Notes: generated by a model not told the origin, from the letters alone. DNA of 64,000 nucleotides from Thermoanaerobaculia bacterium (GCA_035536455.1 DATLOC010000010.1:65544-129543); one strand, 5' to 3'. Numbered from the stretch's first letter, positions 2,181 through 39,687 are shown. Made by a program: numbers and translations.

Positions 2181-2274
2181 CTCGGCTCCTCCTTGTACAG
2201 GAAGACTGTACGGAACGGGGAAGCGACGGTCAAGGAGTGCTGTCCTCGCCACTCCGTTTTCCGTCATTCTCTGC

Positions 2275-4146
2275 ATGATGACCACCGCCCCCTCCCCCAC
2301 TCTCGCCGACGCCCGGGCCACGCTCAGGCGGGTCTTCGGCTTCGACGCCTTCCGCGGCGCGCAGGAGGCGGTGGTGGGTTCCCTCCTCGCCAGCGAGGAC
2401 GCGTTCGTCGTCTGGCCGACGGGGGGCGGGAAGTCGCTCTGCTTCCAACTCCCCGCCATCCTGCGGCCGGGGACCGGGGTGGTCGTCTCGCCGCTCGTGG
2501 CGCTGATGCAGGACCAGGTGGCGGCGCTGCGGCAGCTCGGCGTGGCGGCGGCGGCGGCGCACTCGGGGCTGCCGCCGGGCGAGCTCGCCGCCGTCGAGCG
2601 CCGCTTCGCCGCGGGCGAGCTCGACCTCCTCTACGTCGCCCCCGAGCGACTTCTCACCGACCGCTTCCTCACCCTCCTCGACCAGACGCCGCTCGCCCTC
2701 CTCGCGATCGACGAGGCGCACTGCGTCTCGCAGTGGGGGCACGACTTCCGGCCGGAGTACCTGGGTCTCGGCGTCCTCGGCCGCCGCTTCCCGGGCGTGC
2801 CGCGGCTCGCCCTCACCGCCACCGCCGACCCGACGACGCGCCGCGAGATCGTCGAGCGGCTGGACCTGCCGCGGGCGCGGCTCTTCCTCGCCAGCTTCGA
2901 CCGCCCCAACGTGCGCTACCGCGTCGTCGACAAGCGCGAGGATCCGGCGCGCCAGCTCCTCACCTTCCTGCGCGAGGAGCACGCCGGCGACTGCGGCATC
3001 GTCTACCGCCTGTCGCGCGCCAAGGTCGAGGCGACGGCGGCGTTCCTCGCCGAGCAGGGCGTGGCCGCGCTTCCCTACCACGCCGGCCTGAGTCCCGCCG
3101 AGCGCGCGGCGACGCTCGGCCGCTTCCGCGCCGGCGAGGGGCTGGTGGTCGTCGCCACCGTCGCCTTCGGCCTCGGCATCGACCGCCCCGACGTCCGCTT
3201 CGTCGCCCACCTCGACGTGCCGAGCAGCCTCGAGGCCTACCACCAGGAGACCGGGCGCGCCGGCCGCGACGGCGAGCCGGCCGACGCCTGGATGACCTAC
3301 GGCCTCGGCGACGTGCTGGCGATGCGCCGGCGGATCGACGCCGGCGAGGCCGAGGAGACGCGCAAGCAGGTCGAGCGGCGCAAGCTCGACTCGCTCCTCG
3401 GCTACTGCGAGACGACGGAGTGCCGGCGGCGCGCTCTCCTGCGCTACTTCGGCGAGGAGCCGCCCGGACCGTGCGGCAACTGCGACACCTGCCTCGAGCC
3501 GATCGCCACCTGGGACGCCACGGTGCCGGCGCAGAAGGCGCTCTCGGCGGTCTACCGCACCGGCCAGCGCTTCGGGATGATGCACGTCATCGACGTGCTG
3601 CGCGGCGAGCGCACCGAGAAGGTGCTGCGCCACGGCCACGAGCGCCTCCCCACCTTCGGCGTCGGCGCCGACCTCGAGCCCAAGGCCTGGCGGACGCTGC
3701 TGCGCCAGCTCCTGGTGCGCGGCCTGCTCGCGGCCGAGGTCGAGGGCCTGCAGACCCTGCGTCTCGAGCCCGACGCCTGGCCGGTGCTGCGCGGCGAGAA
3801 GAGCCTCCTGCTGCGCGAGGAGCGGAAGCCGTCGGCGCGCAGCCGCCGGCGCGGCGAGCGGAGCGCCGCCGGCGCGGCGCCGGGCCTTTTCGCGGCCGCG
3901 CCCCTCGATCCCGCCGCCGAGCGGCTGTTCGAGGCGCTGCGCGCCCTGCGCCGCGACCTCGCGCTGGCGCAGGGCGTGCCTGCCTACGTCGTCTTCCACG
4001 ACGCCACCCTCCGCGCTGTCGCCGCGCGCGCGCCGCGGACCCTCGCCGAGCTCGGCCAGGTCTCCGGCATCGGCGAGGCGAAGCTCGCCCGCTACGGCGA
4101 GGCGGTGCTTTCGAAAGTGCGCGAGGTGCTCGTCGGGCCCGATTGA
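2275..4146 (+). CDS. recQ: ATP-dependent DNA helicase RecQ
   Basis: [14 protein letters not shown]..., Walker [18 protein letters not shown] box [18 protein letters not shown], helicase C region, zinc-binding CxxC, and a C-terminal HRDC-like region. 623 aa. Confidence 0.95.
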
Positions 4147-4205
4147 ATTCCCCCGGCGGCCTCGCTAGTCTCCAGCATCGCTCCAACGAGACAGACCACC
4201 GGCTG

Positions 4206-7205
4206 ATGCCGGAGCCCCAGCCGCCGCTCGCCGGCGCCACTCTCGCCCACTATCGCCTCGCGAACCGGCTCGGCGCCGGCGGCATGGGCGAGGTCTATGC
4301 CGCCGAGGACACCAAGCTCGGGCGCCGCATCGCACTGAAGATCCTGCAGCCCGACTTCGCCGGCGACCCGCTGCGGCTCGAGCGGTTCCGCCGCGAGGCC
4401 CGGGCCGTGGCCGCCCTCAACCACCCCAACATCATTACGATCCATTCGGTCGAGGAGGACCGCGGGATCCACTTTCTCACCATGGAGTTGGTGGAAGGGG
4501 AGACGCTGCGGCAGCGGCTGCGCCGGGGCGGTCTGTCGCTCGCCGAGCTCTTGGAGCTGGCGGTGCCGCTCGCCGACGCGGTCGGGGCGGCGCACGAGCG
4601 CGGCATCACCCATCGCGATCTCAAGCCGGAGAACGTGATGGTGACCCGGGACGGCCGGGTCAAGGTGCTCGACTTCGGCCTCGCCCAGCTGCGCGAGCGC
4701 GCGGTCGCGGTCGACAGCCAGGCCGTGACCTACCTCACCGAGGCGGGAACGGTGATGGGGACCGCCGCCTACCTCTCACCCGAGCAGGCGATGGGGCGGG
4801 AGGTGGACGCCCGCTCCGACATCTTTTCGCTCGGCATCGTGCTCTTCGAGATGGCGTCCGGCAGGCACCCGTTCGCCGGGGCTTCCGCGGCGGAGATCAT
4901 CTCGGCGATCCTGCGGGACAAGCCGGCGCCGGTGACCGAGCGCAACGCCGCGCTCCCCGACCACCTCGGCCGGATCGTCGGCCGCTGCCTCGAGAAGAAT
5001 CCCGAGCACCGCTATCAGAGCGCCAAGGATCTTCGCAACGATCTGCGGGATCTGGGACGCGAGCTGGACGCGACGGAGCGCCTCGGCAACCGAGCTGCGG
5101 CGGCCGCGCCGGTGCGACGCCCCCGCTGGCTGCTGCCCGTCCTGCCGGCGCTTTTGGCCCTTGTGCTAGGCACGGGTTGGTGGCTGTTGAGCCATCGTCC
5201 GGAGAGCGCCCGCACGCCGCCCGCCGGGCCGGCGGACGCGCCGGACCGCGCCGCCATCGCGGTGCTCCACTTCCAGAACCTCACCGGGGACCCGAAGCTC
5301 GACTGGCTCCGCACGGGTCTCACCGAGATGCTGGTCACCGACCTCTCGCAATCCCCCGGCCTGGAGGTCCTGAGCACCGGGCGCCTCTATCAGATCCTCA
5401 AGAAGCACGACGCCCTCGATCGGGCGCCGCTGTCCTTCGAGGCCATGCGGGCGGTGGCCGAGGAGGCCGCCGTGCAGGCGATGGTGAGGGGCAGCTTCGC
5501 CCGGGTCGGCGAGCGCTATCGCCTTGCGGTCACGGTCGAGGAGCCGACGGACGGCAGGATCGTCGCCTCCGAGCGCGTCGAAGGACGCGGCCCTGAGACC
5601 CTTTTCACCCTGGTGGACCAGCTCTCGGCGGCGATCCGACGCACCTTCGAGATCCGCGCCCGGCCCGAGCTGCCGGAGACGGTGGCGGCGGTGACCACCT
5701 CCTCGGTCGAGGCTTGGCGCAACTACTCGGAGGCGAACCGGCTGGCCTTCGAGTCGAAACCGAGGGAGGCGATCGGCCTGCTCGAGCAGGCAGTCGCGAT
5801 CGACCCGACCTTCGCTCTCGCCTACGCCAGCCTGGGGCGCCTGTACGAGAACCTCGGTAACACTCCTACCGCCCGGCACCACACGCGGCGCGCCATCGCA
5901 CATGCCGAGCGGCTCCCGCTCGATCAGCGCAGCGAGATCGAGGGCTTCTACTACGCCGGCCGCTGGGCGACCAAGGACCGCGCCATCGCCGCCTTCCGGC
6001 AGGCCCTGAGGCTCTACCCCAAGCGCGAGTCGCTGCGCAACAACCTGGCCAATCTCTACGCCGAGCGGGAGCTGTACCAGCGCGCCCTCGACGAGTATCG
6101 GCAGCTCATCGAGCAGCGCACGAGCTACCCCGGCACCTACACCGCCGCGGCCAACGCCTATGCCGCGCTCGACCGGTTCGATGAAGGGTACCGGCTGCTG
6201 TCGGGGTTCGCCGGCCGCGCCCCCGACAACTGGTTCGTCCAGCTCGGGCTGGGCTGGCACCTGACCGAGTGGGGCAAGCTCGACCGGGCGGCGGCGGCAT
6301 TCGATCGGGCCGCGGAGCTGCGACCGGGCGAGCTGTTCGTCGCCTACGGCCGCTGGCGGCTGGCCGTCCTGCGCGAGGACTGGCCGGCGGCGGCCCGCCA
6401 CGCGTCGGTGATGGCAGCCGCCGACGACCCGTTCGGCCGCTGGCGGGGAGCGGCGTCGGAGGCGCGCAATCTCTTGTACCAGGGTCGATCCGACGCGGCA
6501 CTCGCGCGGCTGGACGGCGTCGTCGCAGCCTACGGGAAACCGGACGCCTTGAGCGCGCTCGGGCGCTGCTGGAAGGCGGAGCTGCTGCTGCAGAGGGGCG
6601 AGCCCGAGCAGGCGCTGGCGGAGGCGGAGCTGGCTCGGCGGGAGGGCCGCGACGAATGGCCGGAGCTGCGGGGGATCTTCTTCGCCGCCCAGGCCCAGCA
6701 GGCCCTCAGCCGGCCGGTCGAGGCGCGCAGCCTGCAGCAGCTGCTGGCGGAGCGGAACGCCGCCAACCCGAACCCTGTCGAGGAGCGCCAGCTCCACCTC
6801 CTCGCCGGCCTCCTCGCGCTGGCGCGCGGCGAGGCGGCGACCGCCGTTGAGGCCCTCAACCGGGCCGCTGCCCTCCTGCCGCCCAAAGGCGTCGAGGTGC
6901 ACTGGCACGTCTACCCCGACCACGTCCCGATCTGGACCGCGCTGGGCGAGGCCGAGCGCGCCGCCGGGCGGCCCGAGCGGGCGCTCGCGTGGTTCCAGCG
7001 GGCGGCCGCCAGCGGGTCGGAGCACCTCGAGCAGCCCGTGCCTTACGTGCGCAGCTTCTACTTCCTCGGCCGCATCCGCGAGCAACGGGGCGAGACCGAG
7101 GAGGCTCGGCGCAGCTTCGCGCGCTTCCGCGCCTTCTGGGCTGCCGGCGACCTCGACCGCGACCGGATGGCAGCGCTGCCGGCGGCTGTGCGCCCCTCTC
7201 CCTAG
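4206..7205 (+). CDS. Ser/Thr protein kinase with one TM segment and a C-terminal TPR/tetratricopeptide domain (receptor-like STK)
   Basis: Hanks kinase motifs ([29 protein letters not shown]). Hydrophobic segment [21 protein letters not shown], then about 650 aa of TPR-like helical repeats. The start is taken at the ATG at 4206, inside the long artefactual ORF 2019..7205. Confidence 0.85.
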
Positions 7206-7633: not shown

Positions 7634-9580
7634 ATGTCCCCACCGGAGCGGACGATGAGCTCCGTAGGCCGCTCGCTCGTCGTCTTTTTCGCCTTCGCCA
7701 ACGACCGCGACGACCGCGCGCGCTACCTGCGCAACCTGCCCGAGGAGCTGCGGCGGGTGCGCGACGCCATGGCGCCAGCGGTGGAGGCCGAGCTCTGCGA
7801 GGTGGTCGAGCGGGCCAACGCCACCATCGACGAGGTGCTGGACGTCTTCCAGGACCCGATCTACCGCGACCGCGTCGCCCTCTTCCACTTCGGCGGTCAC
7901 GCCGGCGGCGCCGAGTTGCTGCTCGAGTCGCCGGCCGGCGCGGCGACCGTGGCCCACGCGGGAGGGCTGGCGCGCTTCCTCGGCGAGCAGCGCGGTCTCG
8001 TGCTGGTGTTCTTGAACGGCTGCTCATCGCGCGGGCAGGTGCAGGGCCTCCTCGACGCCGGGGTGCCGGCGGTCACCTCGCAGGCCATCGACGATGCAGT
8101 GGCGACCGAGTTCGCCGCCCGCTTCTACCAGGCCCTCGCTGGCGGCGCCCCGCTCCGCGCCGCCTATGCCGAGGCGCAGGGCGCGGTGCAGACCCGGCGC
8201 GGCGGCTTGGCGCGCGAAACCTATCGCTCCTTCGTGCCCGAGGCGATGGCGGAAGAGCGCTGGCCGTGGGACCTCCACGTCGCCCCGGGCGCCGAGGAGC
8301 GCGTCGCGCGCTGGAGCCTGCCGCTCGCCGCCCGCGATCCTCTCTTCGGGCTGCCGCCGCCGCCGGCGCTGGACCTGCCGTCCTCGCCGTTCAAGCACCT
8401 TGCCTGGTTCACCCGCGAAGATGCCGAGGTGTTCTTCGGCCGCGGGCAGGAGATCCGCGACCTCTACGAGGCGGTTACCCTGCCCGAGGCCGCCCCCATC
8501 GTGCTCCTCTTCGGCGCCACCGGGGTGGGCAAGTCGTCGCTGCTGGCGGCGGGCCTCGCGCCGCGGCTCGAAGCGACGCACGAGGTGGTCTACACGCGCC
8601 GCGACGGCGCCGGCGGTCTCGCCGCCACGCTGGCGCGGGCGCTCGGGGCCGCGGGCGCCGGCGCTCCGGCCGACCTCGGCGCGGCGTGGCGGGCGCGGGA
8701 GACGGCGGCCGGGAAACCCCTGGTGATGATCCTCGACCAGGCCGAGGAGGCCTGGACCCGCCCGCTGGCCGACGGGCGTGAAGCCGAGGAGCTGGCGGTG
8801 GCGCTGCGCTCGATCTTCGCGGTGCGGGAGGCCCGGCCGCGCGGGCGCCTGCTGCTCGGCTTCCGCAAGGAGTGGCTGGCTGAGGTGCTGCGGCTCGTTG
8901 ACGGCGAGGCGCTGCCCCGCCTGCGCGTGGAAGTCACCCACCTGGGCTGCGATGCCATCGCGGAGGCCGTCGCCGGTCCGGCAAGCAGCGAACGCCTGCG
9001 GCGGCACTACGGCCTGGAGGTCGAGCCGGAGCTGCCGGGGATCGTCGCCGATGACTTGCTGGAAGATCCGGGCGCTGCCGTCGCCCCGGCGCTGCAGATC
9101 CTGCTGACCAAGATGTGGGCCCTGGCGGCAAAGGAGAGCCCCGGCGCGCCGCGCTTCACCGTCGAGCTCTACCAGCGGCTCAAGCGCGGCGGCATCCTGC
9201 TCGACGATTTCATCGGCGAGCAGCTCGACGGTCTGCGGCAATGGCGACGGGAGCTGGTGGACTCCGGCCTGGCCCTCGACCTGCTCGGCCACCACACCAC
9301 GGCCGTGGGCACGGCCGAGACGCGCCAGGCCGCCGAAGTGGCGGAGCGCTACGGCGGCCGTGCCGACGTGAAGGACCTGCTCGCGCAGTGCAACGACCGC
9401 TATCTCCTCTCCGCCACCGAAGGCGCCAGTCGCCTTGCCACGACACCTTGGCGCCCCTGGTGCGCCGACGCTTCGAGGCCTCGGACCTGCCCGGCCAGCG
9501 GGCCTCGCGCATCCTCGGGCAGCGCGTCGTCGAATGGGCGGGGGGCAAGGAGGGGGCGCCGCTCGACGAGCTGGACCTGA
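7634..9580 (+). CDS. CHAT-like (caspase-fold His/Cys) peptidase domain fused to a STAND-class P-loop NTPase. The reading frame degenerates after about 9438, consistent with a frameshift.
   Basis: N-terminal domain has a His...Cys dyad in CHAT/caspase order (ALFHFGGHAG ... LVFLNGCSS). Then FFGRGQEIRDL, Walker A LLFGATGVGKSS and Walker B VMILDQAEE. After SATEGASRLA the translation turns Arg/Ser-rich, and sensible sequence continues in another frame. Confidence 0.7.
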   Translation: MSPPERTMSSVGRSLVVFFAFANDRDDRARYLRNLPEELRRVRDAMAPAVEAELCEVVERANATIDEVLDVFQDPIYRDRVALFHFGGHAGGAELLLESPAGAATVAHAGGLARFLGEQRGLVLVFLNGCSSRGQVQGLLDAGVPAVTSQAIDDAVATEFAARFYQALAGGAPLRAAYAEAQGAVQTRRGGLARETYRSFVPEAMAEERWPWDLHVAPGAEERVARWSLPLAARDPLFGLPPPPALDLPSSPFKHLAWFTREDAEVFFGRGQEIRDLYEAVTLPEAAPIVLLFGATGVGKSSLLAAGLAPRLEATHEVVYTRRDGAGGLAATLARALGAAGAGAPADLGAAWRARETAAGKPLVMILDQAEEAWTRPLADGREAEELAVALRSIFAVREARPRGRLLLGFRKEWLAEVLRLVDGEALPRLRVEVTHLGCDAIAEAVAGPASSERLRRHYGLEVEPELPGIVADDLLEDPGAAVAPALQILLTKMWALAAKESPGAPRFTVELYQRLKRGGILLDDFIGEQLDGLRQWRRELVDSGLALDLLGHHTTAVGTAETRQAAEVAERYGGRADVKDLLAQCNDRYLLSATEGASRLATTPWRPWCADASRPRTCPASGPRASSGSASSNGRGARRGRRSTSWT

Positions 9581-10905
9581 CGGTCGTCGAGCAGGGGGCG
9601 GATGGCATGCGCGCCTGGACCGCCGACGAGAAGCGGCTGGTGGAAAGGAGTCGCGACCAGCGGACGCGGCGCCGGCGGCTGCGGCGCAACCTGCGGTTGG
9701 CGGCGATGTTGGCCGTCCTCGTGATCGCGACGTCCGCCGCCGCAGCCTGGTGGCAGCGGGCCAGGGCCGAGAAGGAAGCGAGGACCGCTGGGCGGGTCAC
9801 CGATTTCCTGACCGGCATGTTCCAGGAGCTCGACCCGTACCGCGTGGCGCTGGACGAGAACTCCTTGCCGCACATTCTCGAGCGCAGCCGGAAGAGGATC
9901 GAGAGGGACCTCGCGGACGAACCGGAGGCGCAGGACGAGCTAAGGGCGACGATTGGTGTGGTCTACCGCAACCTGGGCTTGGTCCGTCCGGCGAGGGAGC
10001 TCCTGCAGCAGGTCGTCGCCTTCCGCCGCCGCACTCTCGGCGAGGAGCATCCGGACACGCTTGTCGCGAAGAACGACCTGGCCAATGTGTACTCCGCGGC
10101 GGCGCGCCACAAGGAAGCCGAGGAGCTGTACCGCCAGGTCCTTGCGAGCCGCCGTCGCGTGCTGGGTGAGGAGCACACGGACACGCTCAAGGCGATGAGC
10201 AATCTGGCTAATGGGTATCGCCATCAAGCCCGCCTGAAAGAAGCGGAAGACATGAACCTGCAGGTCATCGCGCGCTTCCGCCGCGTGTCGGGCGACCGGC
10301 ATCCCGACACGCTCAAAGCGATGACCAACCTAGCCAATCTGTATGCGCTCCAGGGCCGCCTGCGAAGAGCGGAAGAGCTCCATCGCCGGGTCCTCCAGAT
10401 CCGTCGGGGTCTCCTGCGCCCGGAGCACCCGGACACGCTCGCGTCGATGACCAGCCTGGCCAATGTGGTGTCGACGCGCGGGCGCCCGCGGGAGGCCGAG
10501 GAGCTGCAACGCCGAGCCTTCGCGATCTCTCGTCGGGTCCTGGGGGAGGCGCACCCGGACACGCTCATGTACCGGGAAAACCTGGCCAATGCCTACTACG
10601 AGCAGGGTCGCCTGGACGAGGCCGAGAAGCTGTACCGCGAGGTCCTAGCGCTGCGCCGCCGCGTGCAGGGCGAGGAGCATCCGGACACGGTCGCCTCGAT
10701 GAACAACCTGGCGATCTTGGCGCGGGATCGAGACCGCCCCAAGGAAGCGGCCGACCTGCTCCGCCGTGGCCTCGAGATCCATCGCCGCGTGCTGGGGCCG
10801 GAGCACCCGTCCACTCTCACCTCCATGAGCAACCTGGTCGCTGTGCACGCGATGCAGGGTCGCCTCGCAGAAGCCGAGGCCCTGCAGCGCCGGACGGGCG
10901 CCTGA
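9115..10905 (+). CDS. Continuation of the preceding STAND gene in a second frame: helical region, one TM helix, then about 10 TPR_10/12 (kinesin-light-chain-type) repeats. Ends at a second apparent frameshift.
   Basis: Sensible translation starts near 9440 (HDTLAPLVRRRFEASDLPGQ...). TM helix LRLAAMLAVLVIATSAAAAWW. Repeats follow the pattern GEEHPDTLxxMxNLAxxYxxQGRLxEAEELYRRVL. A stop at 10903 interrupts a repeat that continues in frame -1. Confidence 0.65.
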   Translation: MGPGGKGEPRRAALHRRALPAAQARRHPARRFHRRAARRSAAMATGAGGLRPGPRPARPPHHGRGHGRDAPGRRSGGALRRPCRREGPARAVQRPLSPLRHRRRQSPCHDTLAPLVRRRFEASDLPGQRASRILGQRVVEWAGGKEGAPLDELDLTVVEQGADGMRAWTADEKRLVERSRDQRTRRRRLRRNLRLAAMLAVLVIATSAAAAWWQRARAEKEARTAGRVTDFLTGMFQELDPYRVALDENSLPHILERSRKRIERDLADEPEAQDELRATIGVVYRNLGLVRPARELLQQVVAFRRRTLGEEHPDTLVAKNDLANVYSAAARHKEAEELYRQVLASRRRVLGEEHTDTLKAMSNLANGYRHQARLKEAEDMNLQVIARFRRVSGDRHPDTLKAMTNLANLYALQGRLRRAEELHRRVLQIRRGLLRPEHPDTLASMTSLANVVSTRGRPREAEELQRRAFAISRRVLGEAHPDTLMYRENLANAYYEQGRLDEAEKLYREVLALRRRVQGEEHPDTVASMNNLAILARDRDRPKEAADLLRRGLEIHRRVLGPEHPSTLTSMSNLVAVHAMQGRLAEAEALQRRTGA

Positions 10906-10988: not shown

Positions 10989-11258
10989 ATGAACAACCTG
11001 GCCGCCGTCGTGCGAGACCGAGGGCGCCTCGCGGAGGCCGAAGCCCTGTACCTCCAGGTCCTCGCGCGCCGGCGCCGCACGCTGGGCGAACAACACATCG
11101 ACACGCTCACCACGATGACCGAACTGGCAGGCGTCTATCGGGCGCAAGGTCGCCTACAAGAAGCGGAGGGACTGGAGAGCCAGGCTCTCACGCTCTATCA
11201 GCAGGCGCACCCTCCACCGCCTTCACCGCGAAGTGCTCCAGCAGATAGCGATGGATGA
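10989..11258 (+). CDS. Terminal TPR repeat fragment of the same disrupted STAND-TPR gene
   Basis: Read-through in this frame from about 10897 gives GRLKAAEGLYRRTLARFRRGLGEEHPETIWSMNNLAAVVRDRGRLAEAEALYLQVLARRRRTLGEQHIDTL..., which are canonical repeats. The 3' end overlaps the convergent gene. Confidence 0.55.
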   Translation: MNNLAAVVRDRGRLAEAEALYLQVLARRRRTLGEQHIDTLTTMTELAGVYRAQGRLQEAEGLESQALTLYQQAHPPPPSPRSAPADSDG

Positions 11259-12762
11259 ACATGTAGCCGCCGCCCACCTTCTGCAGGAAACCGAGATCCT
11301 CGGCGGCGTAGTCGAGGAAGTCGGAGAGCCGCAGCGGCAGGAGGCGCTTGGCCGACAGGATCAGGCGGAGGACCCAGTGGTAGATCACGTCGGCGCCGCC
11401 GTACCAGAGACCGGCGTAGAGGCCCGCGGCGAGCGCCGCGAGGATTCCGAAAAGAGTGCCGTAGAGCGGCCCGAGAGCCGGACCCACTCCCGCCTGAGAG
11501 CTCACCCAGCGCCCGAGTGCGTACCCGCCGGCGGCGCCGGCGAAGCCGAAGGCCAGGCCCACGAGGCCGCCGCCCACGAAGGCGTTGCGCAGCGACAGCC
11601 GGATGCCCTGGTTGGGCACGGTCTTGAGCGCCACGACCCGGCTCTGGAGCCCGTTGAAGATGGTCCCGGCGAGCGCGCCCACGAGGGCCGCCGCCAGCCA
11701 CACGAACCAGGGGAGGCCGAGCGAGGTCGAGAACGTGCCCGTGGCGCCGCCGAGAAGCGCGAGGCCGCCCAGCAAGGCGCTGCACACCAGCCCGCAACCC
11801 AGACCGGCGGTCCCGCCGCGGCGGAGCGCCTTCCCGACGCCGGCTCGGGCCCAGAGATTGACCGCGGCCCCGAGGACGGCGCCCACCACGGCGAGCAGCA
11901 GCATGAGGAACAACCACAGCATCAGGTACGGCCCAGCTTTCAGGAGCAGGGCGGTTCCCAACCCGGCGATCAGCCCGATCAGGGCTCCTTTGCCGACGCC
12001 GACCCATGACCACCTCAGGGTCTCCACCGTCTGGATCTCCCGCGTCCCGCTCTGGCGCGCGGCCCTCGTCCCCCAGAGCGGCGCGGCCACCACAGCGAAG
12101 GTCGGGCCGATGAAGAACGCGGCCAGCACCCCCACGAACGGCCCAATCGCCGCGTCGCCGCCTTCGTCGATCAGGCCGAAGACGGTGAAAAGGCCCCCGG
12201 CGACGACCACGGTGACGAGGGAGCAGAACAGCGTCAGGGCCACGAAGTAGAGGGCCGAGAAGGCGAGACGCCGCCATCGCGCCGGGGCCTCGTCGGCCAT
12301 CCTCCAGAAGCGGCCGGCGCGAAGCCGCCACAGCTCGAGCACGGCACCGCTCGGGCTCACAACCAGGCCGGCGAGCAGCCCGAGGACGAGGGTGCCAACC
12401 GCCGCCATCGCGATAACTTCCACCAGCCCCTCCTCGACCACGGTCACCACCGAGGTCCCCGAGCTGGTTAGGAAGTCGATGATCGACCCACTGCCGTCCT
12501 CCATCGTTCCGGCCTGGAACAGGAGGAGGATGGCGCTCGGTCCGATGATGGCGGCCCAGAGCACCCCCAAGAGCACGCCCACCGCCAGCCGCGAGGCCAG
12601 GAGGTAGAGGGCGAGCTGTCCGCGCCCCGAGAGCCAGCTCGGCTGGAGCTGCTCGATCAGGAAAACCGTCTGCCCGTGCTGCTGCATGCCCCTGGCGAGC
12701 CAGGCCAGCCAGGCGGTGGCTTGGCGTTCGCTATACGGCGGCTTGCCCTTCCGCTCAGGCAT
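11188..12762 (-). CDS. C-terminal part of a NACHT NTPase: winged-helix motifs flank an inserted multi-pass (about 8-10 TM) membrane domain
   Basis: N-terminus PYSERQATAWLAWLARGMQQHGQTVFLIEQL matches the NACHT helical/WH region. About 380 aa of hydrophobic helices follow. The C-terminus ...DFLDYAAEDLGFLQKVGGGYMFIHRYLLEHFA matches the NACHT terminal FxHxxxQEYxA-type motif. The start ATG overlaps the upstream ORF's stop (ATGCCTGA). Confidence 0.7.
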   Translation of the reverse strand: MPERKGKPPYSERQATAWLAWLARGMQQHGQTVFLIEQLQPSWLSGRGQLALYLLASRLAVGVLLGVLWAAIIGPSAILLLFQAGTMEDGSGSIIDFLTSSGTSVVTVVEEGLVEVIAMAAVGTLVLGLLAGLVVSPSGAVLELWRLRAGRFWRMADEAPARWRRLAFSALYFVALTLFCSLVTVVVAGGLFTVFGLIDEGGDAAIGPFVGVLAAFFIGPTFAVVAAPLWGTRAARQSGTREIQTVETLRWSWVGVGKGALIGLIAGLGTALLLKAGPYLMLWLFLMLLLAVVGAVLGAAVNLWARAGVGKALRRGGTAGLGCGLVCSALLGGLALLGGATGTFSTSLGLPWFVWLAAALVGALAGTIFNGLQSRVVALKTVPNQGIRLSLRNAFVGGGLVGLAFGFAGAAGGYALGRWVSSQAGVGPALGPLYGTLFGILAALAAGLYAGLWYGGADVIYHWVLRLILSAKRLLPLRLSDFLDYAAEDLGFLQKVGGGYMFIHRYLLEHFAVKAVEGAPADRA

Positions 12763-14893
12763 GCGCGCCCGCTTCCGCCCGGCGGAACATGCGGGCGACG
12801 AAAGCCTCCATCAGTTTCTGGCGCCGGGCGGCGAGGGTCTCCGCGCCGGCGCTCTCGAGGGTCGTCACGGGCAGATCCTGGTAGGCCTGGACCATCAAGC
12901 TCAGCATCAGGGGCGAGCGGGCCTCGATGAGCATCCCGGAATCGCGTTCCAAGAGGCTCTTGAGGGCCGCCAGCGGGGGGCCCGCCCGCTCCAGGAAGGC
13001 GAAGACCTGATCGCGCGTGAACGGCTGGAGGCGGATGGCGCCGTTCAGGGCGAGGCGCACCGGCAGCTCCAGGTACTCTTTGAGGCGGCAGCAGACCGCG
13101 ATGCTCGGCTGCAGGCCGGCCTCGGTAAATGCGTTGACCGCCTCGACACAGGCGCTCCGGGCCTCCGGCGCCACCTCGTCGAGACCGTCGAGCAACGGCA
13201 GCAGCCGGCCCTCGTCGAGCCAGGCACGGCCCACCCTCTTCGGGATCAGGTAGCGGACCGCCAGCCGGTCCACCAGCCAGTCGCCGAAGTCCTGTCCAGG
13301 GCCCTTCCACGAGGCGAGGTCGAAAAGGACCGGCACGGGGCAGGCGGGATCTTTCTCGGCCCGGTCGAGGAGGTCCCGAGCCAGCTCCAGGAGGCTGATC
13401 GTCTTGCCTGACCCGGGCTCGCCGAGAACGAGCAGCGAGCCGCCCAGCTCTTCGAAGACCTCGGCGACGCGCCGCCCGGCGGGCACTGCCGCGGCGCCCG
13501 CGTCCGCGGTGTCCGACACCGCGCCGAAGGGGCTCGCCGTCGCCCCCCCCACGATCTCCATCCCCAGGTCCAAGCGGGCGCTGCGCTGGAGCGAGCGCTC
13601 GAGCACCCCTTCGATCCAGAACTGGCGCACTTTGCGCAGCAGGATCAGCAGACCCTTGCGGGCATCGGGGGCGGCCACGGCCGGCGCCGGAGAAGGCCGC
13701 GCCGGGGCCGCCGGCGGCGGCGCGGAGGCCGGCGCCGCGCGGAACAGGGCCCCCGCGACGTCGACGCGGAACAGCGTGCCGTCGCGGGCGCGCAGGTGCA
13801 GCACCGGCGTGCCCCACTCGACGTTGTCTCCGAGGGCCATCTTGATCGCTTGGCGGGCCTCCGAAACCGCCGTGTCCACGGCGTCGCCGTCGGCCAGGGA
13901 GTCGTAGAACGTCCGGGCGAACTCGATGGCCGCGCGGTCGCTGATCTCGTACTGCATCGAGACCACCGCGGGGAGCCCTCGGCTCGCCAGGATCGCCCCG
14001 GCGCTCGAGCAGAGGCTCGTCTCGCTGCTGCGGGCACCTTCGCAAGCGTTGAGGACCGCGAGCTTGAGCGACGCATGGTCGGCCAGCAGCGTCCCCAAAT
14101 CGCGGGCCGGAAGCCGGTGAGGCTCCCCGCCGCCGCCCGCCTCCGCGTCGAGCAGCACCAGCCCCTCGCCCGTCGCTTCGTCGAAGCCGCCGTGGCCGAT
14201 GAAATGAAAGATGTGCCAGGGCCCTTGCTCCAGGGCCTCGCTCAGGTCCCGCCAGGTATGGCCGCCGACCCACTGGAGCCGTACCACGCCCTTGTCCGTC
14301 AGGTGCTCGATGGCGAGCGCCATCTGCTCCTGCTCGCGCGCCACGTTCAGACCGTGCCGCGCGCCCACCATGCCGAGGATCCGGATCGGCGGCTCCAGGG
14401 TCAGCGGCTCGATCGGCAGCCCCAACTCGAGGTGGCGCACGATGGGAGTCTCGCGCGAGAGGCTCAGGTAGTCCTGCTTGAAGTCCGGATCGAAGAGGTA
14501 CTCCCAGGGCAGGGCGGCGAGGTCGGGGGCCTCGATGCGCAGCCGGAGCCGCAGGCCCTTGCCCTGGCCGCGGGCCTGCACGAGGCTGGTGTGGTAGCAG
14601 GCGTAGAGGGCCTTCTCGCGGGTGAGAGCGGCGAAGAGGTCGCGGCCCAGCTCCTGGGCGCTCCGCATCCGGTCGAGCGGCGCCTCTTCCGGCCGCGTCG
14701 GGGCGAAGCTGCGGCCCGCTCTGCCGGCGCCACGGGCGGCCTCCACCAGGCGCAGGCGGTCGCGGAAGATCGGGTCGGAAAGCGTCAGCTCGAGGGTGGC
14801 GTTCGTCTCCCCCGCCGGCGAGTCCAGGACGGAGACGGCGTAGACGCCCTCGCCGCGAGGGCTGATCTTCAGCTCGAGCTCCAGGTACTCCAT
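12755..14893 (-). CDS. CHAT-domain peptidase fused to a NACHT NTPase. N-terminal part of a split NLR-like gene.
   Basis: CHAT motifs (LPWEYLFD..., HIFHFIGHGG, LAVLNACEGA). NACHT Walker A LVLGEPGSGKTIS, Walker B LLPLLDGLDEV, sensor IAVCCRL, and ARSPLMLSLMVQAY. Start taken at the ATG at 14893, 8 bp after the caspase gene's stop. The ORF-track extension to 15670 is read-through. Confidence 0.8.
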   Translation of the reverse strand: MEYLELELKISPRGEGVYAVSVLDSPAGETNATLELTLSDPIFRDRLRLVEAARGAGRAGRSFAPTRPEEAPLDRMRSAQELGRDLFAALTREKALYACYHTSLVQARGQGKGLRLRLRIEAPDLAALPWEYLFDPDFKQDYLSLSRETPIVRHLELGLPIEPLTLEPPIRILGMVGARHGLNVAREQEQMALAIEHLTDKGVVRLQWVGGHTWRDLSEALEQGPWHIFHFIGHGGFDEATGEGLVLLDAEAGGGGEPHRLPARDLGTLLADHASLKLAVLNACEGARSSETSLCSSAGAILASRGLPAVVSMQYEISDRAAIEFARTFYDSLADGDAVDTAVSEARQAIKMALGDNVEWGTPVLHLRARDGTLFRVDVAGALFRAAPASAPPPAAPARPSPAPAVAAPDARKGLLILLRKVRQFWIEGVLERSLQRSARLDLGMEIVGGATASPFGAVSDTADAGAAAVPAGRRVAEVFEELGGSLLVLGEPGSGKTISLLELARDLLDRAEKDPACPVPVLFDLASWKGPGQDFGDWLVDRLAVRYLIPKRVGRAWLDEGRLLPLLDGLDEVAPEARSACVEAVNAFTEAGLQPSIAVCCRLKEYLELPVRLALNGAIRLQPFTRDQVFAFLERAGPPLAALKSLLERDSGMLIEARSPLMLSLMVQAYQDLPVTTLESAGAETLAARRQKLMEAFVARMFRRAEAGAHA

Positions 14894-14901
14894 GCCGGGC
14901 G

Positions 14902-16956
14902 TTACCGCCGCACCCCGATCGCCACCGTGGCCGTCGCCCAGTCGCGCTCCGGCACGTCCTCGACCCTCGGCGGGGCGAAGCTGCGCGACCCCTCCCCCGA
15001 CTGGTAGAGGGCGGCCACCCGCTCGAGCGGGTTCTCGCCCCAGACGGCACGGGTCGCCTCCTGTTCCAGGAACCCGAAGTCGACGGGAGCGCGGGTGACC
15101 AGGAGCTTCAGGTGGACGAGCCCGAGGTCCGCGATCTCGCCGGGCTCGGCCGCCCAGGGGAAACCGGCGGGCAGGTGCAGGGGCAGGCCCCCGGCGAGCT
15201 TGAAGGAGTCGCGGCCGACCCGCGTCACCGCGCCTGGGGCCAGCTCCATCCCGCCCGCCACGTCGACGTCGCCCTGGAACGGGATGAGGAGCTGAATCCT
15301 GCCGTCGCTGCCGAACTCGACCAGACTCACGCGGACCGGGGCGTCGAAGCCGTTCTCGATCTCGAACTCCGCCGCCTCCCCCTCGCGGAAGACCGGGACG
15401 CCGTCGCCGGGCGCGGGCTCGGCGGCGATCAGCTCGTCGCCACGCTGGCGGTACGCGCGCAGCCCGACCCGCCCGCGCAGCCGGCTCGCCGGGTCGGGGT
15501 TGTCGAGCGCGAGGAGCGACCGGTAGCGGGCGACGCCGCGGAGGTCGCGGAGCAGGGCGTCGAGGTCGGCGGGCTGCGGCGGCTGCTCGGACCGCAGGTG
15601 CGCCGCGAGGCGCCCGTCGCGGCCGACCGCGGCCCAGGTCCAGGCGGCGAGCGGCCCCACGCCGGGGCACGGATCGCCGGGTCCGACGCCCGGCCGCGGC
15701 GGCAGGCAGCGGACGAGGACGTCGGCGTCGGCGGCGTCCTCGATCCGTTGCAGCAGGCGGTCGCCGTCGAGGAGGCCGGCGAGGCGGCCGGCCTCTGCGG
15801 CCCGCTCCGCCGGCACCGCGAGCGCGAGCCGCAGCCCCGGCGCGGGGAGCCGCTGCTCGGCGAGGAAGGCGCGCATCCCGGGCTCGGGCTCGCCGCCGCG
15901 TCCGGCCTCGAGCCGCCCGCGGGCGGTCGCGGCCGCGACGTCGCCGATGCGCACCGCCGCCACCTCCTCACCCGCGCTCCGGTCGCGGCTGCCGAAGGCG
16001 CGGATCGTCCACAGCGAGCCCGGCGCCACGCCGTGGGCGGCGCCGCCGGCGAGCTCCACCTCGTCTCCCGTGCGCGACAGGACCCGCAGGTAGGAGCCCG
16101 GCCGCACCTCCTCCGTACCGAACAGCAGCTCGTCCAGCTTGCCCTCGGCCTGCGGGTGCTGGCGGCCGTAACGCGCGGTGACCGCCGGCGCGACCTGCTC
16201 GATGAGATCGCGCCAGGTGACCGCCCGGTCGAGTCGCGCCAGCGCCTCGCCGAGAAAGAAGGTCAGGGCGCCATGCCGCACGACCTGGGTGCCGTCGAAG
16301 ACCCGGTGCTCGCTCGCCAGCTCGTCGGCGCGGCAGGCGGCCACCATGACCGCGCGCCGCCGCCCCGGGAGCCATCCGGCCCGGCCGGCCTCCTCAGGCG
16401 CGCTCAAGCTCCGAGTCGCCGCGAGGACGGGCGGCGGCTCGCCGCCGGCGAACATCTCCGCCGGCGCGCGCAGGTCGGCCTCCACCTCGCGCGTCGCCTC
16501 GCCGAACGCGTCGCGGGTGACCGCGCCCGAGTGGCAGCAGTCGAAGAGCAGTGTGACGTACGGGGTCTTCTCGTTGACCCGCCGCACCCAGGCGTCGATC
16601 TCCTCGTCGATCAGGTCGCGGTTGGGCTTGCTGCCGCGGCCGCTGTCGTGGGTGACCATCGACTCGATCATCCGCCCCGGGGCGCGCGGGTCGGCCATCC
16701 GCGAGCCGTGCCCCGCATAGAAGAGGACGACGACGTCCTCCTCCCCTGCCGCGGCCGCCAGCTCCTCGAGCGCCGCCAGGACGCCCGCGCGCGTCGCCTC
16801 GGAGTCGCGCAGCGCGCGCGCCTCGGCCTCCGGGAAGCCGAAGCGGTCGACGAGCAGCGAGCGCATCAGCTCCATGTCGTTGACGCACCCCTCGAGGTCC
16901 GCGCCGGCGATCTCGGGGTAGCGGTTGATCCCGATGAGCAGGGCTCGTCTCTCCAT
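14902..16956 (-). CDS. Peptidase C14 (caspase/metacaspase-family) protein with a C-terminal domain of about 400 aa and unknown function
   Basis: RALLIGINRYP...VNDMELM...VVLFYAGHGS (His) and LLFDCCHSGA (Cys). Strong SD (GGGAGGGCGCGAGG) before the ATG at 16956. First gene of a two- or three-cistron minus-strand operon. Confidence 0.85.
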   Translation of the reverse strand: MERRALLIGINRYPEIAGADLEGCVNDMELMRSLLVDRFGFPEAEARALRDSEATRAGVLAALEELAAAAGEEDVVVLFYAGHGSRMADPRAPGRMIESMVTHDSGRGSKPNRDLIDEEIDAWVRRVNEKTPYVTLLFDCCHSGAVTRDAFGEATREVEADLRAPAEMFAGGEPPPVLAATRSLSAPEEAGRAGWLPGRRRAVMVAACRADELASEHRVFDGTQVVRHGALTFFLGEALARLDRAVTWRDLIEQVAPAVTARYGRQHPQAEGKLDELLFGTEEVRPGSYLRVLSRTGDEVELAGGAAHGVAPGSLWTIRAFGSRDRSAGEEVAAVRIGDVAAATARGRLEAGRGGEPEPGMRAFLAEQRLPAPGLRLALAVPAERAAEAGRLAGLLDGDRLLQRIEDAADADVLVRCLPPRPGVGPGDPCPGVGPLAAWTWAAVGRDGRLAAHLRSEQPPQPADLDALLRDLRGVARYRSLLALDNPDPASRLRGRVGLRAYRQRGDELIAAEPAPGDGVPVFREGEAAEFEIENGFDAPVRVSLVEFGSDGRIQLLIPFQGDVDVAGGMELAPGAVTRVGRDSFKLAGGLPLHLPAGFPWAAEPGEIADLGLVHLKLLVTRAPVDFGFLEQEATRAVWGENPLERVAALYQSGEGSRSFAPPRVEDVPERDWATATVAIGVRR

Positions 16957-17174
16957 CCTCGCGCCCTCCCGCGGAGGCCCCGGCCGCTCGTTTGTCAGAG
17001 TGGTGGCAGCATAGCATTCGCCTTCCGCTATCTTTCCGACAGACGGCGCTTGAATCGCAAAAGAGCGATATCGCTCCGCGGCGACGAGAGTTGGCGCGGA
17101 GTTGACCTTCTCCACGAAGCGTGTCAGAAATGGCGCGCAAATCGGTCCACAATCGACTCAACGAAGGGGGAAGA

Positions 17175-20123
17175 ATGAAGAGCATGCTGCTTCGTCGGCA
17201 CGTGGTGGTTTTCGCCGCCTTTCTCATCCCGCTGCTCGCCGCCTCGTGCACGATCCAGCGCGCGATGGTCAAGCCCGAGGGCGCGAGCGGGGGGAAGAAG
17301 GCTCCGGCCGCGCTGGCCAACAAGATGGCGCAGGCGCAGAAGTTCGCGCCCTGGGACGAAACAAGGCTGCAGGACGCCGGCCCCGCCAGCTTCGCCGAGC
17401 AGGACTGGCTGGAGAAGAACACGGACGGCCAGGGGAACGGGCCCACTCCGCTCAGCGCTCTCAGCGGGGCGCTCGCCGGCTGGAAGGGGTTCAAGGCGCG
17501 GCCGGCCGAGGGGGGCGGGGCGTGGCAGCCGTTCGGCCCCACCAACGGCATCAACGACCTGGCCAACCCGTACCGCGACCGCTCCGTGTACAACGCGGGG
17601 ACCGAGAACTTCAGCGGCCGCACGGTCCACGCCGTGATCTCGCCGGACTGCACGGCGGGCGATTGCACCCTGTGGATCGCCAATGCCAACGGCGGCGTCT
17701 GGCGGACCGCCGACGCGCTCGCTCCAGAGCCGGCGTGGGAGTACGTCTCGTATGCCTTCGAGCAGAACAACGTCTCGTCCCTCGCGCTCGACCCCAACGA
17801 CGCCAGCCACAGGACGCTGTGGGCCGGCACCGGCGAGCCCAACGCCTGCGGCAGCGGCTGTGAGGCCGGGGTCGGCGTCTACGTGTCGACCAACGGCGGC
17901 AACTCCTGGAGCGGCCCGCTCGGCGTGGAGGCCTTCTTCGGCCGCGCCGCCGGCACGGTCGAGGTCAAGCCGGGCGACCCCAACACCATCTTCGTCGGCG
18001 CCGGCCGCGGCGTCGTGGGCGTCAGCAACACCTGCTGCGGCGGCGCCGACGCGCTAATTCCCGGCGCGCCGCACTTCGGGGTCTGGCGGTCGCAGGACCG
18101 CGGCCAGACCTGGGAGCTGGTCAACCAGGGCGACGCCGCGCTCTGCACCGCGTTCACCCCCGATCAGGTGTCCTTGAACGGCACGCCCTGCTCGCCGCGC
18201 GGCGCCCGCCGCGTGAAATTCGACCCGGTCGATCCGAACACGGTCTACGCCTCGTTCTTCGCCCGCGGCATCTGGCGCTCGAAGTCGAACGGCGATCCGG
18301 GAACCTGGGAGCAGATCATGCCGCGGCTCGGGCCCGCCACGGTCACCACCGAGCGCGCCGAGTTCGACGTCGTCGAGCTGCCGAGCGGCGAGACGCGGAT
18401 GTACGTCGGCGTCGGCGGCGGCGGCCTCTTCGCCCGCTTCCGCCGCAACGACGCGGTGCGCAACCCGGCCGCCGCCACGGTCGCGGCCTCCTGGGTGACC
18501 ACCACTAGCTCTGTCGTCAACTCGCCGGGCTACTCCAGCTTCGGCTTCTGCGACGGGCAGTGCTCCTACGACAGCTACGTGTACGTCCCGCCGGCGTCGT
18601 CGGGGGCCACGGTCGACACCGTCTACCTCTCGGGCGCCAACCAGTACAACGAGAACAACTACGCCCCCAGCACCAGCGGGCGGTCGAACGGCCGCGCCGT
18701 CCTGGTCTCCACCGACGCCGGGGCGACGTTCACCGACCTGACCGAGGACAGCCGCAGCAACACTCAGCCGGGCGCGCTGCACCCGGACCACCACGCGGTG
18801 GTGGTCAACCCGACGAACTGGATGCAGTTCTTCGACTTCGGGGACGGCGGCGTCAACCGCTCGGACGGCGTCTTCGTCGACGAGTCGGCCGACTGCGCGG
18901 CGCCGCCGAAGTCCTACACCGGCGGGAACCGCACGTTCTGCGAGCTGGTGCTGTCGCGGGTGCCGCAGGAGCTCAAGGCGATCAACAAGGGCCTGCGGAC
19001 CCTCCACTTCTACCAGGTCGAGTACGACCGGACGAACCCGGACCGGCTCGCCGGCGGCACCCAGGACAACGGCTCGTGGGAGACGCTGGGCGACAAGGAC
19101 ACCTGGGTCAACGTCAACGTCGCCGACGGCGGCCACAACGCCTTCGACGCGCCGGGGCCGGGCCACGATCCGGAGTTCGCGCTGACCTCCTTCCAGGTCG
19201 GCCAGCTCTCGGTGCGCTACAACTCGCTCGACCAGTCCGACGTCAACTGGATCTCGGACACCCTGTTCATCCTCTTCAACGAGGCCTCGCCGTTCATCAC
19301 CAGCGCGATCACCGACCCGGTGACGCCGGGCACCCTCTTCACCGGCCGCGAGCACGTGTTCCGCTCGAAGAACTGGGGCCGCGCCGTCGGGCTGACCAAG
19401 GCCAAGCACCGGCAGCACTGCAACATCTGGACCGGCGACGGCGACATCGACGAGGACGGCACCTACGAGCCGCTCACCGACCTCTGCGACGACTGGAGGG
19501 CGCTGGGCAATCAGACCGCGGCCGGCAGGCTGACCAACGCGGTCTTCGGCGACCGCGCCGGCGGGCACATCTCCACGGTGGAGCGCGCCTACAGCGACAC
19601 CAGCACGCTGTGGGCGACGACGAGCACCGGCCGCGTCTTCATCTCCAAGAACGTCGACAACGCGGACCCCACGACCGTCACCTTCACCCGGCTCGACAGC
19701 CTGGCCGCCAACGACCCGCCGCGCTACCCGACGGCGATCTTCGTCGACCGCACCAACCCGAACCACGCCTGGATCAGCTACAGCGGCTTCACCGCCAAGA
19801 CGCCGCTCACGCCGGGCCACATCTTCGAAGTGACCTACAACCCCGGGGCGGGAACGGCGACGTTCACGATGCTCGACTCGCTGGACCCGGAAAAGAACTA
19901 CCCGGACATCCCGGCCAACGCGATCGTCGTCACCAACGCGGGCTCCATCTACGTCGGCAACAGCTTCGGAGTCGCGGTGAAGAAGGCCGGCACCGACAAG
20001 TGGAAGCCCTCGCCGGCCGGTCTGCCCAACGTCAACGTGGCCGACCTGGTCTACATGCCGGAGAGGGACTCCCTCTTGGCCGGTACGCACGGCCAGGGCA
20101 TCTGGAAGCTGAAGGTGAAGTAA
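17175..20123 (+). CDS. Secreted lipoprotein with BNR/Asp-box (SxDxGxTW) beta-propeller repeats. Sialidase or GH74/Ycf48-like.
   Basis: Lipoprotein signal MKSMLLRRHVVVFAAFLIPLLAASC. A GAAGGGGGAAGA SD precedes the ATG at 17175. Repeated S-x-D/N-x-G-x-(T/S)-W motifs (VSTNGGNSWSG, SKSNGDPGTWEQ, RSQDRGQTWEL, VSTDAGATFTD). Confidence 0.8.
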   Translation: MKSMLLRRHVVVFAAFLIPLLAASCTIQRAMVKPEGASGGKKAPAALANKMAQAQKFAPWDETRLQDAGPASFAEQDWLEKNTDGQGNGPTPLSALSGALAGWKGFKARPAEGGGAWQPFGPTNGINDLANPYRDRSVYNAGTENFSGRTVHAVISPDCTAGDCTLWIANANGGVWRTADALAPEPAWEYVSYAFEQNNVSSLALDPNDASHRTLWAGTGEPNACGSGCEAGVGVYVSTNGGNSWSGPLGVEAFFGRAAGTVEVKPGDPNTIFVGAGRGVVGVSNTCCGGADALIPGAPHFGVWRSQDRGQTWELVNQGDAALCTAFTPDQVSLNGTPCSPRGARRVKFDPVDPNTVYASFFARGIWRSKSNGDPGTWEQIMPRLGPATVTTERAEFDVVELPSGETRMYVGVGGGGLFARFRRNDAVRNPAAATVAASWVTTTSSVVNSPGYSSFGFCDGQCSYDSYVYVPPASSGATVDTVYLSGANQYNENNYAPSTSGRSNGRAVLVSTDAGATFTDLTEDSRSNTQPGALHPDHHAVVVNPTNWMQFFDFGDGGVNRSDGVFVDESADCAAPPKSYTGGNRTFCELVLSRVPQELKAINKGLRTLHFYQVEYDRTNPDRLAGGTQDNGSWETLGDKDTWVNVNVADGGHNAFDAPGPGHDPEFALTSFQVGQLSVRYNSLDQSDVNWISDTLFILFNEASPFITSAITDPVTPGTLFTGREHVFRSKNWGRAVGLTKAKHRQHCNIWTGDGDIDEDGTYEPLTDLCDDWRALGNQTAAGRLTNAVFGDRAGGHISTVERAYSDTSTLWATTSTGRVFISKNVDNADPTTVTFTRLDSLAANDPPRYPTAIFVDRTNPNHAWISYSGFTAKTPLTPGHIFEVTYNPGAGTATFTMLDSLDPEKNYPDIPANAIVVTNAGSIYVGNSFGVAVKKAGTDKWKPSPAGLPNVNVADLVYMPERDSLLAGTHGQGIWKLKVK

Positions 20124-21178: not shown

Positions 21179-23173
<1,995 letters not shown>

Positions 23174-39674: not shown

Positions 39675-39687
39675 GGTCCCTCAGGTT

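Follow-up and report, generated by a model that had tools for sequence, protein, structure and literature searches.

Evidence for a conserved gene fission that divides the NACHT module of a CHAT-headed bacterial NLR-like (STAND) protein

Within a 64,000-nt stretch of DNA from Thermoanaerobaculia bacterium (GCA_035536455.1, DATLOC010000010.1:65544-129543; this whole stretch is called the window below), two overlapping open reading frames (ORFs) on the minus strand share one NACHT module between them. ORF1 (12755..14893, 712 aa; defined by Pfam and orthologues) encodes a CHAT domain followed by the NACHT nucleotide-binding domain (NBD) and the helical domain (HD), and ORF2 (11188..12762, 524 aa; defined by orthologues and models) encodes the winged-helix domain (WHD), which is interrupted by a multi-pass membrane insert. 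We interpret this arrangement as a real gene fission that cuts the NACHT module of a bacterial NLR-like (STAND) protein and has been maintained in evolution, and we give a probability of about 0.8 to this being the whole explanation; the narrower statement, that the two-subunit split is real and maintained, is held with still greater confidence. The original prediction for this locus, which was made from the DNA sequence alone, had already noticed that the NACHT motifs are distributed over both frames, and this was borne out, as Walker A and Walker B are located in ORF1 and the winged-helix elements in ORF2.

The two frames meet in an 8-nt overlap, ATGCCTGA, at 12755..12762 on the minus strand (plus-strand letters tcaggcat). 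The stop codon of ORF1 is the TGA at 12757-12755, so that the protein ends with ...ARMFRRAEAGAHA (in a longer reading, ...AFVARMFRRAEAGAHA), and the ATG at 12762-12760 starts ORF2 in the +1 frame relative to ORF1, which gives the N-terminus MPERKGKPPY (MPERKGKPPYSERQ). The stop after RRAEAGAHA and the start of MPERKG in another frame had both been located correctly in the original prediction, and both lie on the minus strand. No other start codon occurs in the ORF2 frame from the preceding stop, which is located 16 codons upstream, to the conserved region. The C-terminal tail of ORF1, RAEAGAHA (12758..12781, minus strand), is without counterpart in the fused relatives described below, and the DNA that encodes it holds both the ORF2 start codon and a weak Shine-Dalgarno (SD)-like element, GGAAG. 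The comparison of the window with an independent Logan assembly of run SRR8544467 showed 0 mismatches in 5825 nt (window 11569-17393), the junction included.

The mechanically called ORF at 12755-15670 (971 aa) is over-extended, and the real start of ORF1 is placed at the Met codon at 14893 (MEYLELELK) because this position agrees with the orthologues and with an exactly matching NCBI protein. That protein, P0008, is identical to ORF1 and is annotated as a 'CHAT domain-containing protein' of a Thermoanaerobaculia metagenome-assembled genome (MAG); the DNA here is 70.8% G+C. The CHAT (caspase-like) protease domain (13841..14608, minus strand) was matched by Pfam PF12770 (E = 3.3e-22; 79.7 bits against a cut-off of 24, which passes the gathering threshold) and by the PADLOC profile SAVED_CHAT (2e-19), and its catalytic-type His in HFIGHG (14189-14206) and Cys in LNACEG (14036-14053) are kept in all orthologues. 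The P-loop core of the NACHT domain, from Walker A through Walker B, was defined by its motifs at 13172..13423 on the minus strand. Walker A, GEPGSGKT (13400-13423, ORF1 residues 491-498), fits the P-loop consensus GxxGxGK[ST], and Walker B, LLPLLDGLDEV (13172-13204, residues 564-574), is of the hhhhD[GAS]hDE type. The Walker A and B columns are nearly invariant in 74 homologues, as are D549, G550, L551, D552 and E553 in the numbering of the fused relative P0012. Since ORF1 ends about 220 residues past Walker A, the nucleotide-binding and helical domains are present in it and the WHD is absent. The family belongs to NACHT, as matches to Pfam PF05729 are precomputed for many orthologues and fused relatives, and the truncated module of the window scores low. 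The NCBIfam model HetF matched the CHAT region of ORF1 with 70 bits against an equivalog cut-off of 1200, and ORF1 is not a HetF equivalog. The NCBIfam EruA match reached just 17 bits against a cut-off of 1000, and no experimentally tested bacterial NACHT (bNACHT) protein is a close relative.

ORF2 is identical to P0001, annotated at NCBI as 'hypothetical protein VNJ70_03220' of Thermoanaerobaculia bacterium, and it has no family match in Pfam, NCBIfam or PADLOC. Its residues 1-44 (12631..12762, minus strand), which consist of the helix PYSERQATAWLAWLARGM followed by TVFLIEQLQPSWL, make up the first part of the WHD; they aligned with residues 695-735 of P0012, which hold helix 703-719 and a strand right after the disordered loop 685-702. 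The second part of the WHD, FLDYAAEDLGFLQKVGGGYMFIHRYLLEHFA, was located at residues 479-512 (11227..11328, minus strand) by alignment and from the P0012 model. The membrane insert between them, at residues ~47-471 (11350..12624, minus strand), was delimited by a hydropathy scan, models and alignment; it is about 420 aa long and contains ~9-10 hydrophobic helices according to the hydropathy scan. Conservation across this large family is highest in the first 44 and the last ~45 residues of ORF2, which include the pattern FLQKVGGGY-F-H. Residues F492, L493, K495, V496, G497-G499, Y500, F502 and H504 are invariant or nearly invariant, and His504 (11251-11253; F-I-H within YMFIH), located in the last WHD element, is fully invariant. 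The AlphaFold2 (AF2) model of ORF2 had a mean predicted local distance difference test score (pLDDT) of 77.5 and a predicted template-modelling score (pTM) of 0.76. When it was compared with PDB folds the membrane insert remained unmatched, with the best hit at E = 4.6e-3 and a TM-score of ~0.15 to generic MFS-like helices. Two motifs of the insert, (E/D)IQTVETLRWSW (ORF2 residues 240-252, window ~12007-12045) and KTVPNQGIRLSLRNA (residues 380-394, ~11581-11625), are strongly conserved and non-hydrophobic. Both are predicted to form short extramembrane β-strands between the transmembrane (TM) helices, and on these models they are candidates for a signal-sensing surface.

Many relatives of the pair are single-chain proteins. 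Two of them, P0014 and P0016, have ~39% identity to an artificial query joining the NACHT part of ORF1 with ORF2 and cover 98-100% of it, and the fused proteins P0012, P0075, P0092, P0197, P0199, P0229 and P0237 bear CHAT as well. Since fused relatives exist, the view of the original prediction that the two frames are one gene is valid in the evolutionary sense, and in that sense only. In the AF2 model of the fused protein P0012 (pLDDT 80) the last helix of the helical domain spans residues 666-684 and is followed by the disordered loop 685-702, the first WHD helix 703-719, the helical membrane insert 737-1025, and the remaining part of the WHD at 1032-1066, which is formed by a helix, a β-hairpin and a helix. 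The top PDB fold matches of this model were NOD2 (E = 1e-7), NLRC4, NAIP5 and NLRP3, and its N-terminal domain matched the SAVED-CHAT filament 8tl0. A search of PDB sequences with P0012 gave weak P-loop matches only (ORC1 and RFC, E at least 0.017). The NBD–helical domain–winged-helix fold was seen in the P0012 model, and in the window this architecture spans ORF1 plus ORF2. From the model and its fold matches, the cut in the window is placed in the predicted disordered loop that joins the helical domain to the WHD of an insert-bearing NACHT module.

The junctions in orthologous DNA were located using profile hidden Markov models for the NACHT end and the WHD start on stop-to-stop fragments; these models were used instead of an earlier regular-expression motif scan, which missed many loci. 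The cut was found at one and the same alignment position in 19 loci, the window being one of them, and an ORF2 start codon is present in 19/19 of them. The 18 other split loci are from Thermoanaerobaculia, Calditrichia (L008), Planctomycetota (L010 and L012) and metagenomes, they show 40-94% identity, and their sequences come from Illumina, long-read, JGI, ENA, NCBI and Logan assemblies. An 8-nt overlap of the form RTGNNTRR is found in 14 loci (the window, L001, L002, L003 (=L007), L004, L006, L008, L010, L012, L013, L015, L029, L095 and L096), a 4-nt overlap ATGA or GTGA in four (L041, L044, L062 and L097), and a 1-nt overlap, TAGTG, in L027, so that with overlaps of 8, 4 or 1 nt the frame offset of ORF2 relative to ORF1 varies between lineages. 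At each of the 19 loci ORF1 and ORF2 are neighbours that share a strand and overlap. Every close orthologue of ORF2 (82-94% identity) is a protein on its own, with a length of 522-550 aa, and the orthologues of ORF1 (65-91% identity) are all 696-712 aa long with short variable tails. These tails have 6-12 residues and diverge in sequence (AEAGAHA, AGLGETHA, MVATNV, ARQGGSLV and others); what recurs at the junction is nucleotides, namely an ATG, GTG or TTG start, often preceded by GGAGG or GGGAGG 6-14 nt upstream. In 9/16 loci the SD-like element ranked within the top 5% of background windows or higher. Hence, the comparison with orthologues that the original prediction called for revealed the same two-ORF organization, and the domains did not turn out to be separately complete, as one NACHT module extends over two polypeptides.

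The length of the junction also differs between split and fused members of the family. In fused non-CHAT members (n = 53 loci, 53 cluster representatives) the NACHT model is separated from the WHD model by 0-3 residues, while the split pairs have 8-13 extra residues there, contributed by the tail of ORF1 and the head of ORF2. These extra residues show that the fission is a small insertion supplying a stop codon, an SD sequence and a start codon, and not a bare 1-nt shift. Both genes are under purifying selection, with ratios of nonsynonymous to synonymous substitution rates (dN/dS) of 0.16-0.33 for ORF1 and 0.37-0.45 for ORF2. An exhaustive HMMER search with ORF2 gave 6394 matches, and among the best 150 cluster representatives at 50% identity, which were classified, 71 are clean stand-alone ORF2-type proteins, with a median length of 409 aa and a start 0-13 residues before the first WHD helix.

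These results bear on the proposal in the original prediction that a single-nucleotide indel disrupts one gene, either as a recent pseudogene or as a sequencing or assembly error in the MAG. Such an indel would place a NACHT module in two frames, as is observed, fused relatives including CHAT-bearing ones are known, and true frame breaks are present nearby, in a CHAT–nSTAND1–TPR gene of the window, and in the long-read loci L003 and L012. However, the same organization is shared by 18 other loci obtained with varied assemblers, and a second assembly of this locus is identical. Family homology is absent from the ORF2 frame before its ATG and from the ORF1 frame after its TGA, the junction contains 8-13 additional codons, and both ORFs are intact with dN/dS below 0.5. 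Because of the recurrence of the split, the extra codons, the selection on both genes and the breadth of stand-alone ORF2 proteins, we consider the indel, whether as pseudogene or as error, to be excluded for practical purposes.

Several single loci call for separate comment. The long-read MAG copies carry extra frameshifts in ORF2 (L003/L007, from the long-read MAG MFD03066, at ~6376) or in both genes (L012 at ~3440-3480 and 4286-4739), and those in L003 and L012 are probably due to homopolymer errors or decay. L012 had appeared as a candidate for a 'fused CHAT' protein, which was rejected, as it has a long-read frameshift upstream and the overlap GTGGCTGA is present. The locus L047 (2901-4208) contains an orphan WHD–TM gene which keeps only the last helix of the helical domain (RRKHLFDTYIVRMFKRRGK...), and the genes upstream of it are unrelated; this orphan resembles what is left of a fused-type gene after N-terminal truncation, and not a split partner.

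A fission in which ORF2 is translated as a protein of its own has to be weighed against programmed ribosomal frameshifting, in which a +1 shift at or near the TGA would produce one fused CHAT–NACHT–TM protein. This would agree with the position of ORF2 in the +1 frame and with an overlap that ends in a stop codon, as at prfB-type +1 sites, and the geometry of the overlap is kept in 14 loci. On the other hand, the P-site codons before the stop (GCC, GTC, GGG and GGC) are unable to re-pair after a +1 slip, the 16-codon window that is open in both frames contains no slippery heptamer, and the five loci with a 4-nt or 1-nt overlap would need a -1 shift rather than +1. The conserved item at the junction is the ATG, GTG or TTG start located 5 nt before the stop, often with the SD-like sequence upstream of it at the spacing given above. 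The predicted folding of 131 nt of RNA around the junction was unremarkable (z = -0.82), and the Rfam gathering scan was empty at the junction and reported a tRNA elsewhere only. These junction data argue strongly against programmed frameshifting, which on the sequence we regard as very improbable. Hence, from the 'unusual split or recoded NLR' of the original prediction the split is retained and the recoding is dropped, given the mixed frame needs, and the slippery-sequence and pseudoknot features that it advised looking for were represented neither by a slippery site nor by an unusual RNA structure.

Another possibility is that the two proteins are independent and no longer cooperate, so that ORF1 would be a CHAT-ATPase acting alone without a WHD, and the membrane protein ORF2 would serve some unrelated function. 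The existence of an ORF2-like gene without an adjacent NACHT gene (the truncated orphan in L047) would be in line with this, as would the absence of an annotated family match for ORF2. Against it, none of the 19 split loci has lost the adjacency, common strand and overlap of the two genes. The family is most strongly conserved at the WHD residues encoded in ORF2, and in the fused relatives the same residues pack as the WHD of one NACHT module. In overlapping bacterial genes, coupled translation usually accompanies stoichiometric partners, which also argues against independence. Although it is less remote than frameshifting, we consider the independence of the two proteins to be improbable, and the fission into two cooperating subunits remains the preferred explanation.

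Among the loci sampled, the distribution of the split within the family follows the N-terminal domain. Where the contig includes the N-terminus of ORF1, a CHAT head was present at 16/16 split loci (L015, L097 and truncated ORF1s were left out of this scoring, and L095 and L096 were scored by Pfam context), and the family members with other N-terminal domains, ~45 in number, are all fused. A neighbour-joining tree built from the NACHT region grouped the CHAT members in one clade, with three fused CHAT proteins nested inside it. The linker between the NACHT and WHD parts of the fused CHAT proteins is 0-2 residues long in P0197, P0229 and P0237, which is an ancestral-like state, and 10-11 residues long in P0012, P0075 and P0199, which corresponds to the tail plus the head of the split pairs. 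Because of this equality in length, the sequences suggest that P0012, P0075 and P0199 are secondary re-fusions of a split gene. Between one ancient fission followed by re-fusions and several independent fissions, the linker lengths favour some re-fusions.

The gene upstream of ORF1 in the same operon (14902..16956, minus strand) encodes a 684-aa Peptidase_C14 (caspase-like) protein, which was matched by Pfam PF00656 (E = 2e-20; 73.9 bits against a cut-off of 21.4) and by the PADLOC 'caspase' profile (3e-25). It contains the motifs YAGHG and DCCHSG, which hold the His/Cys dyad, and ends 8 nt before the start of ORF1. The gene is also located upstream in L001, L002, L004, L006, L094 and L095, and nearby in L029 and L096. 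In total, a C14 caspase gene was found in the flanks of 8/19 split loci, as compared with 0 of ~75 other loci.

Several observations weigh against the interpretation given here or limit its reach. The Pfam NACHT model PF05729 scored 19.0 bits on ORF1 of the window, below its gathering threshold of 26.7, and the assignment to NACHT is based on the motifs, on the precomputed PF05729 matches of orthologues and on a fused homologue whose model matched in fold. The SD-like element of the window is weak, with a pairing energy of -5.8 kcal/mol that is equalled by 36% of background windows. The C-terminal wing of ORF2 was modelled poorly when ORF2 was modelled alone (pLDDT 53-75). The neighbour-joining tree has no support values, and a number of fission and re-fusion events read from it would be tentative. 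The caspase gene was found in under half of the split loci, whose flanks are short, and as no PADLOC system model spans the operon, a defence role would rest on analogy. The association of ORF1 with ORF2, their separate translation and the protease cascade discussed below are all things that we infer.

NLR and other STAND switches are understood as single chains in which ADP is held against the NBD by the WHD, and which are activated by a rigid-body rotation; the loop that joins the helical domain to the WHD is the hinge of this movement. In NLRC4 and Apaf-1 the ADP is clamped by the WHD through a conserved histidine, and activation rotates the NBD–HD1 unit away from the WHD. From what is known of overlapping bacterial genes, one mRNA would yield two separate polypeptides here, with the initiation of ORF2 coupled to the termination of ORF1, either by termination-reinitiation or with the help of the SD sequence. 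By analogy with the NLR and Apaf-1 structures, the membrane-anchored WHD subunit would then dock in trans on the CHAT–NBD–HD subunit and complete the NACHT switch, and His504 of the F-I-H motif could play the ADP-contacting 'lock' role of the histidine in NLRC4 and Apaf-1. A membrane or periplasmic cue acting on the insert might relax this lock, leading to nucleotide exchange, oligomerization of ORF1 and activation of CHAT. By analogy with the cascade from SAVED-CHAT to PCaspase, the active CHAT protease would in turn cleave and activate the C14 caspase encoded upstream, its likely substrate and executioner. The cell could then stop growing or die, as happens in defence and regulated-death systems. 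We judge this combination of a lock in trans with a protease cascade to have a somewhat less than even chance of being correct. A more specific and doubtful version is a two-component NLR, in which the membrane WHD would serve as a 'lid' that holds the soluble CHAT–NBD protein inactive, so that its release or re-docking would result in oligomerization and a caspase cascade. If that were true, the confinement of the split to CHAT-bearing members would indicate that the CHAT effector has to be uncoupled from the membrane sensor in order to assemble, and the fission with occasional re-fusion could be viewed as an adaptive tuning of the coupling between sensor and effector.

The split pair resembles several known systems and differs from each of them. 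Bacterial NACHT proteins with transmembrane regions were reportedly described by Kaur and co-workers in 2020 and 2021. Proteins with TM regions inserted in the NACHT module are a recognized class of bacterial NACHT proteins (Kibby et al., bioRxiv 10.1101/2022.07.19.500537). Similarly to these TM-bearing bNACHT proteins, the pair combines an N-terminal effector with a NACHT NTPase in the centre and a multi-TM sensor region that interrupts the module, and the fused members P0014, P0016 and P0075 have exactly this layout in a single chain; the difference is that here two polypeptides share the module, which is cut at the loop joining the helical domain to the WHD. The SAVED-CHAT protein assembles into filaments, after which it activates PCaspase by cleavage (Steens et al., bioRxiv 10.1101/2023.06.23.546230; PDB 8tl0). 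As in this system, which belongs to type III-B CRISPR and CBASS, CHAT is here fused to an oligomerizing sensor and its gene lies beside a C14-type caspase gene. In contrast to SAVED-CHAT, the sensor and oligomerizer consists of a NACHT NTPase with a membrane-embedded WHD, and there is no cyclic-oligonucleotide-binding SAVED domain. The PADLOC SAVED_CHAT match on ORF1 is limited to the CHAT part (profile positions 101-295 of 498), and CRISPR, Cas10 and CD-NTase/cyclase genes were not found among the annotated neighbours. The operon is therefore not a member of the SAVED-CHAT/PCaspase system, which it resembles in its effector logic.

With coupled overlapping gene pairs that code for the subunits of a complex, such as those with ATGA 4-nt or 8-nt overlaps, the pair shares a start codon and SD sequence inside the upstream ORF, the same strand and the lack of space for a promoter, but its products are halves of one ancestral domain module and do not go back to separate ancestral proteins. 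The CHAT head on a STAND NTPase is common to HetF-type and other CHAT–STAND proteins, which, unlike the proteins studied here, are single-chain with soluble repeat sensors and belong to the nSTAND1 clade rather than to NACHT. A search of the open-access literature, the coverage of which is incomplete so that a prior mention is possible, did not bring up any NACHT module that is divided after the helical domain, with the WHD on another polypeptide.

A large conserved family in which the two sides of the hinge are on separate polypeptides, one of them embedded in the membrane, would constitute a natural 'trans' switch. Such a pair would permit direct tests of the control of the NBD by the WHD, as the lid could be titrated, mutated or released. 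The split family also points to the sensing of membrane state by bacterial NLR-like proteins, and suggests a NACHT-driven cascade from CHAT to caspase that would be parallel to the CRISPR-linked SAVED-CHAT/PCaspase system. The architecture is populous and conserved beyond one MAG, and is hidden by current automated annotation. With ORF2 annotated as a 'hypothetical protein' and ORF1 as a 'CHAT domain-containing protein', domain-based censuses of NLRs therefore miss or mis-score the family. Overlap junctions of this kind should not be flagged automatically as pseudogenes.

The operon stands among other conflict-type genes of the window. Its convergent neighbour is a CHAT–nSTAND1–TPR gene (7634-10905, plus strand; assigned by Pfam), which is frame-broken near 9436-9440, where the window reads GCCACGAC and the L001 orthologue GCCCATGAC, a difference that corresponds to a 1-nt deletion in the window. 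At ~9437 the CHAT-nSTAND1 frame (7634-9580) gives way to the TPR frame (9115-10905), and a TPR fragment in the third frame is located at 10989-11258; this broken gene could be a pseudogene or an assembly error. The annotated C-terminus of the L001 orthologue itself seems out of frame from the position corresponding to window ~9999 on. Further away, a Ser/Thr-kinase–TPR ORF (2019-7205, plus strand) has Pfam domains only from residue ~745 onward, and its start is probably over-called. On the other side, a BNR-repeat ORF of 1000 aa (17121-20123, plus strand), with a weak BNR/Asp-box match, is divergent from the caspase gene. The window also contains the chromosomal marker uvrB (21179-23173), an IS110/IS116-family transposase ORF (24863-25894, plus strand), a tRNA-Gln confirmed by Rfam (39687-39760), and a 79-nt tRNA-Gly(GCC) (44557-44635, minus strand), which was detected by ARAGORN and was not reported by the Rfam gathering scan.

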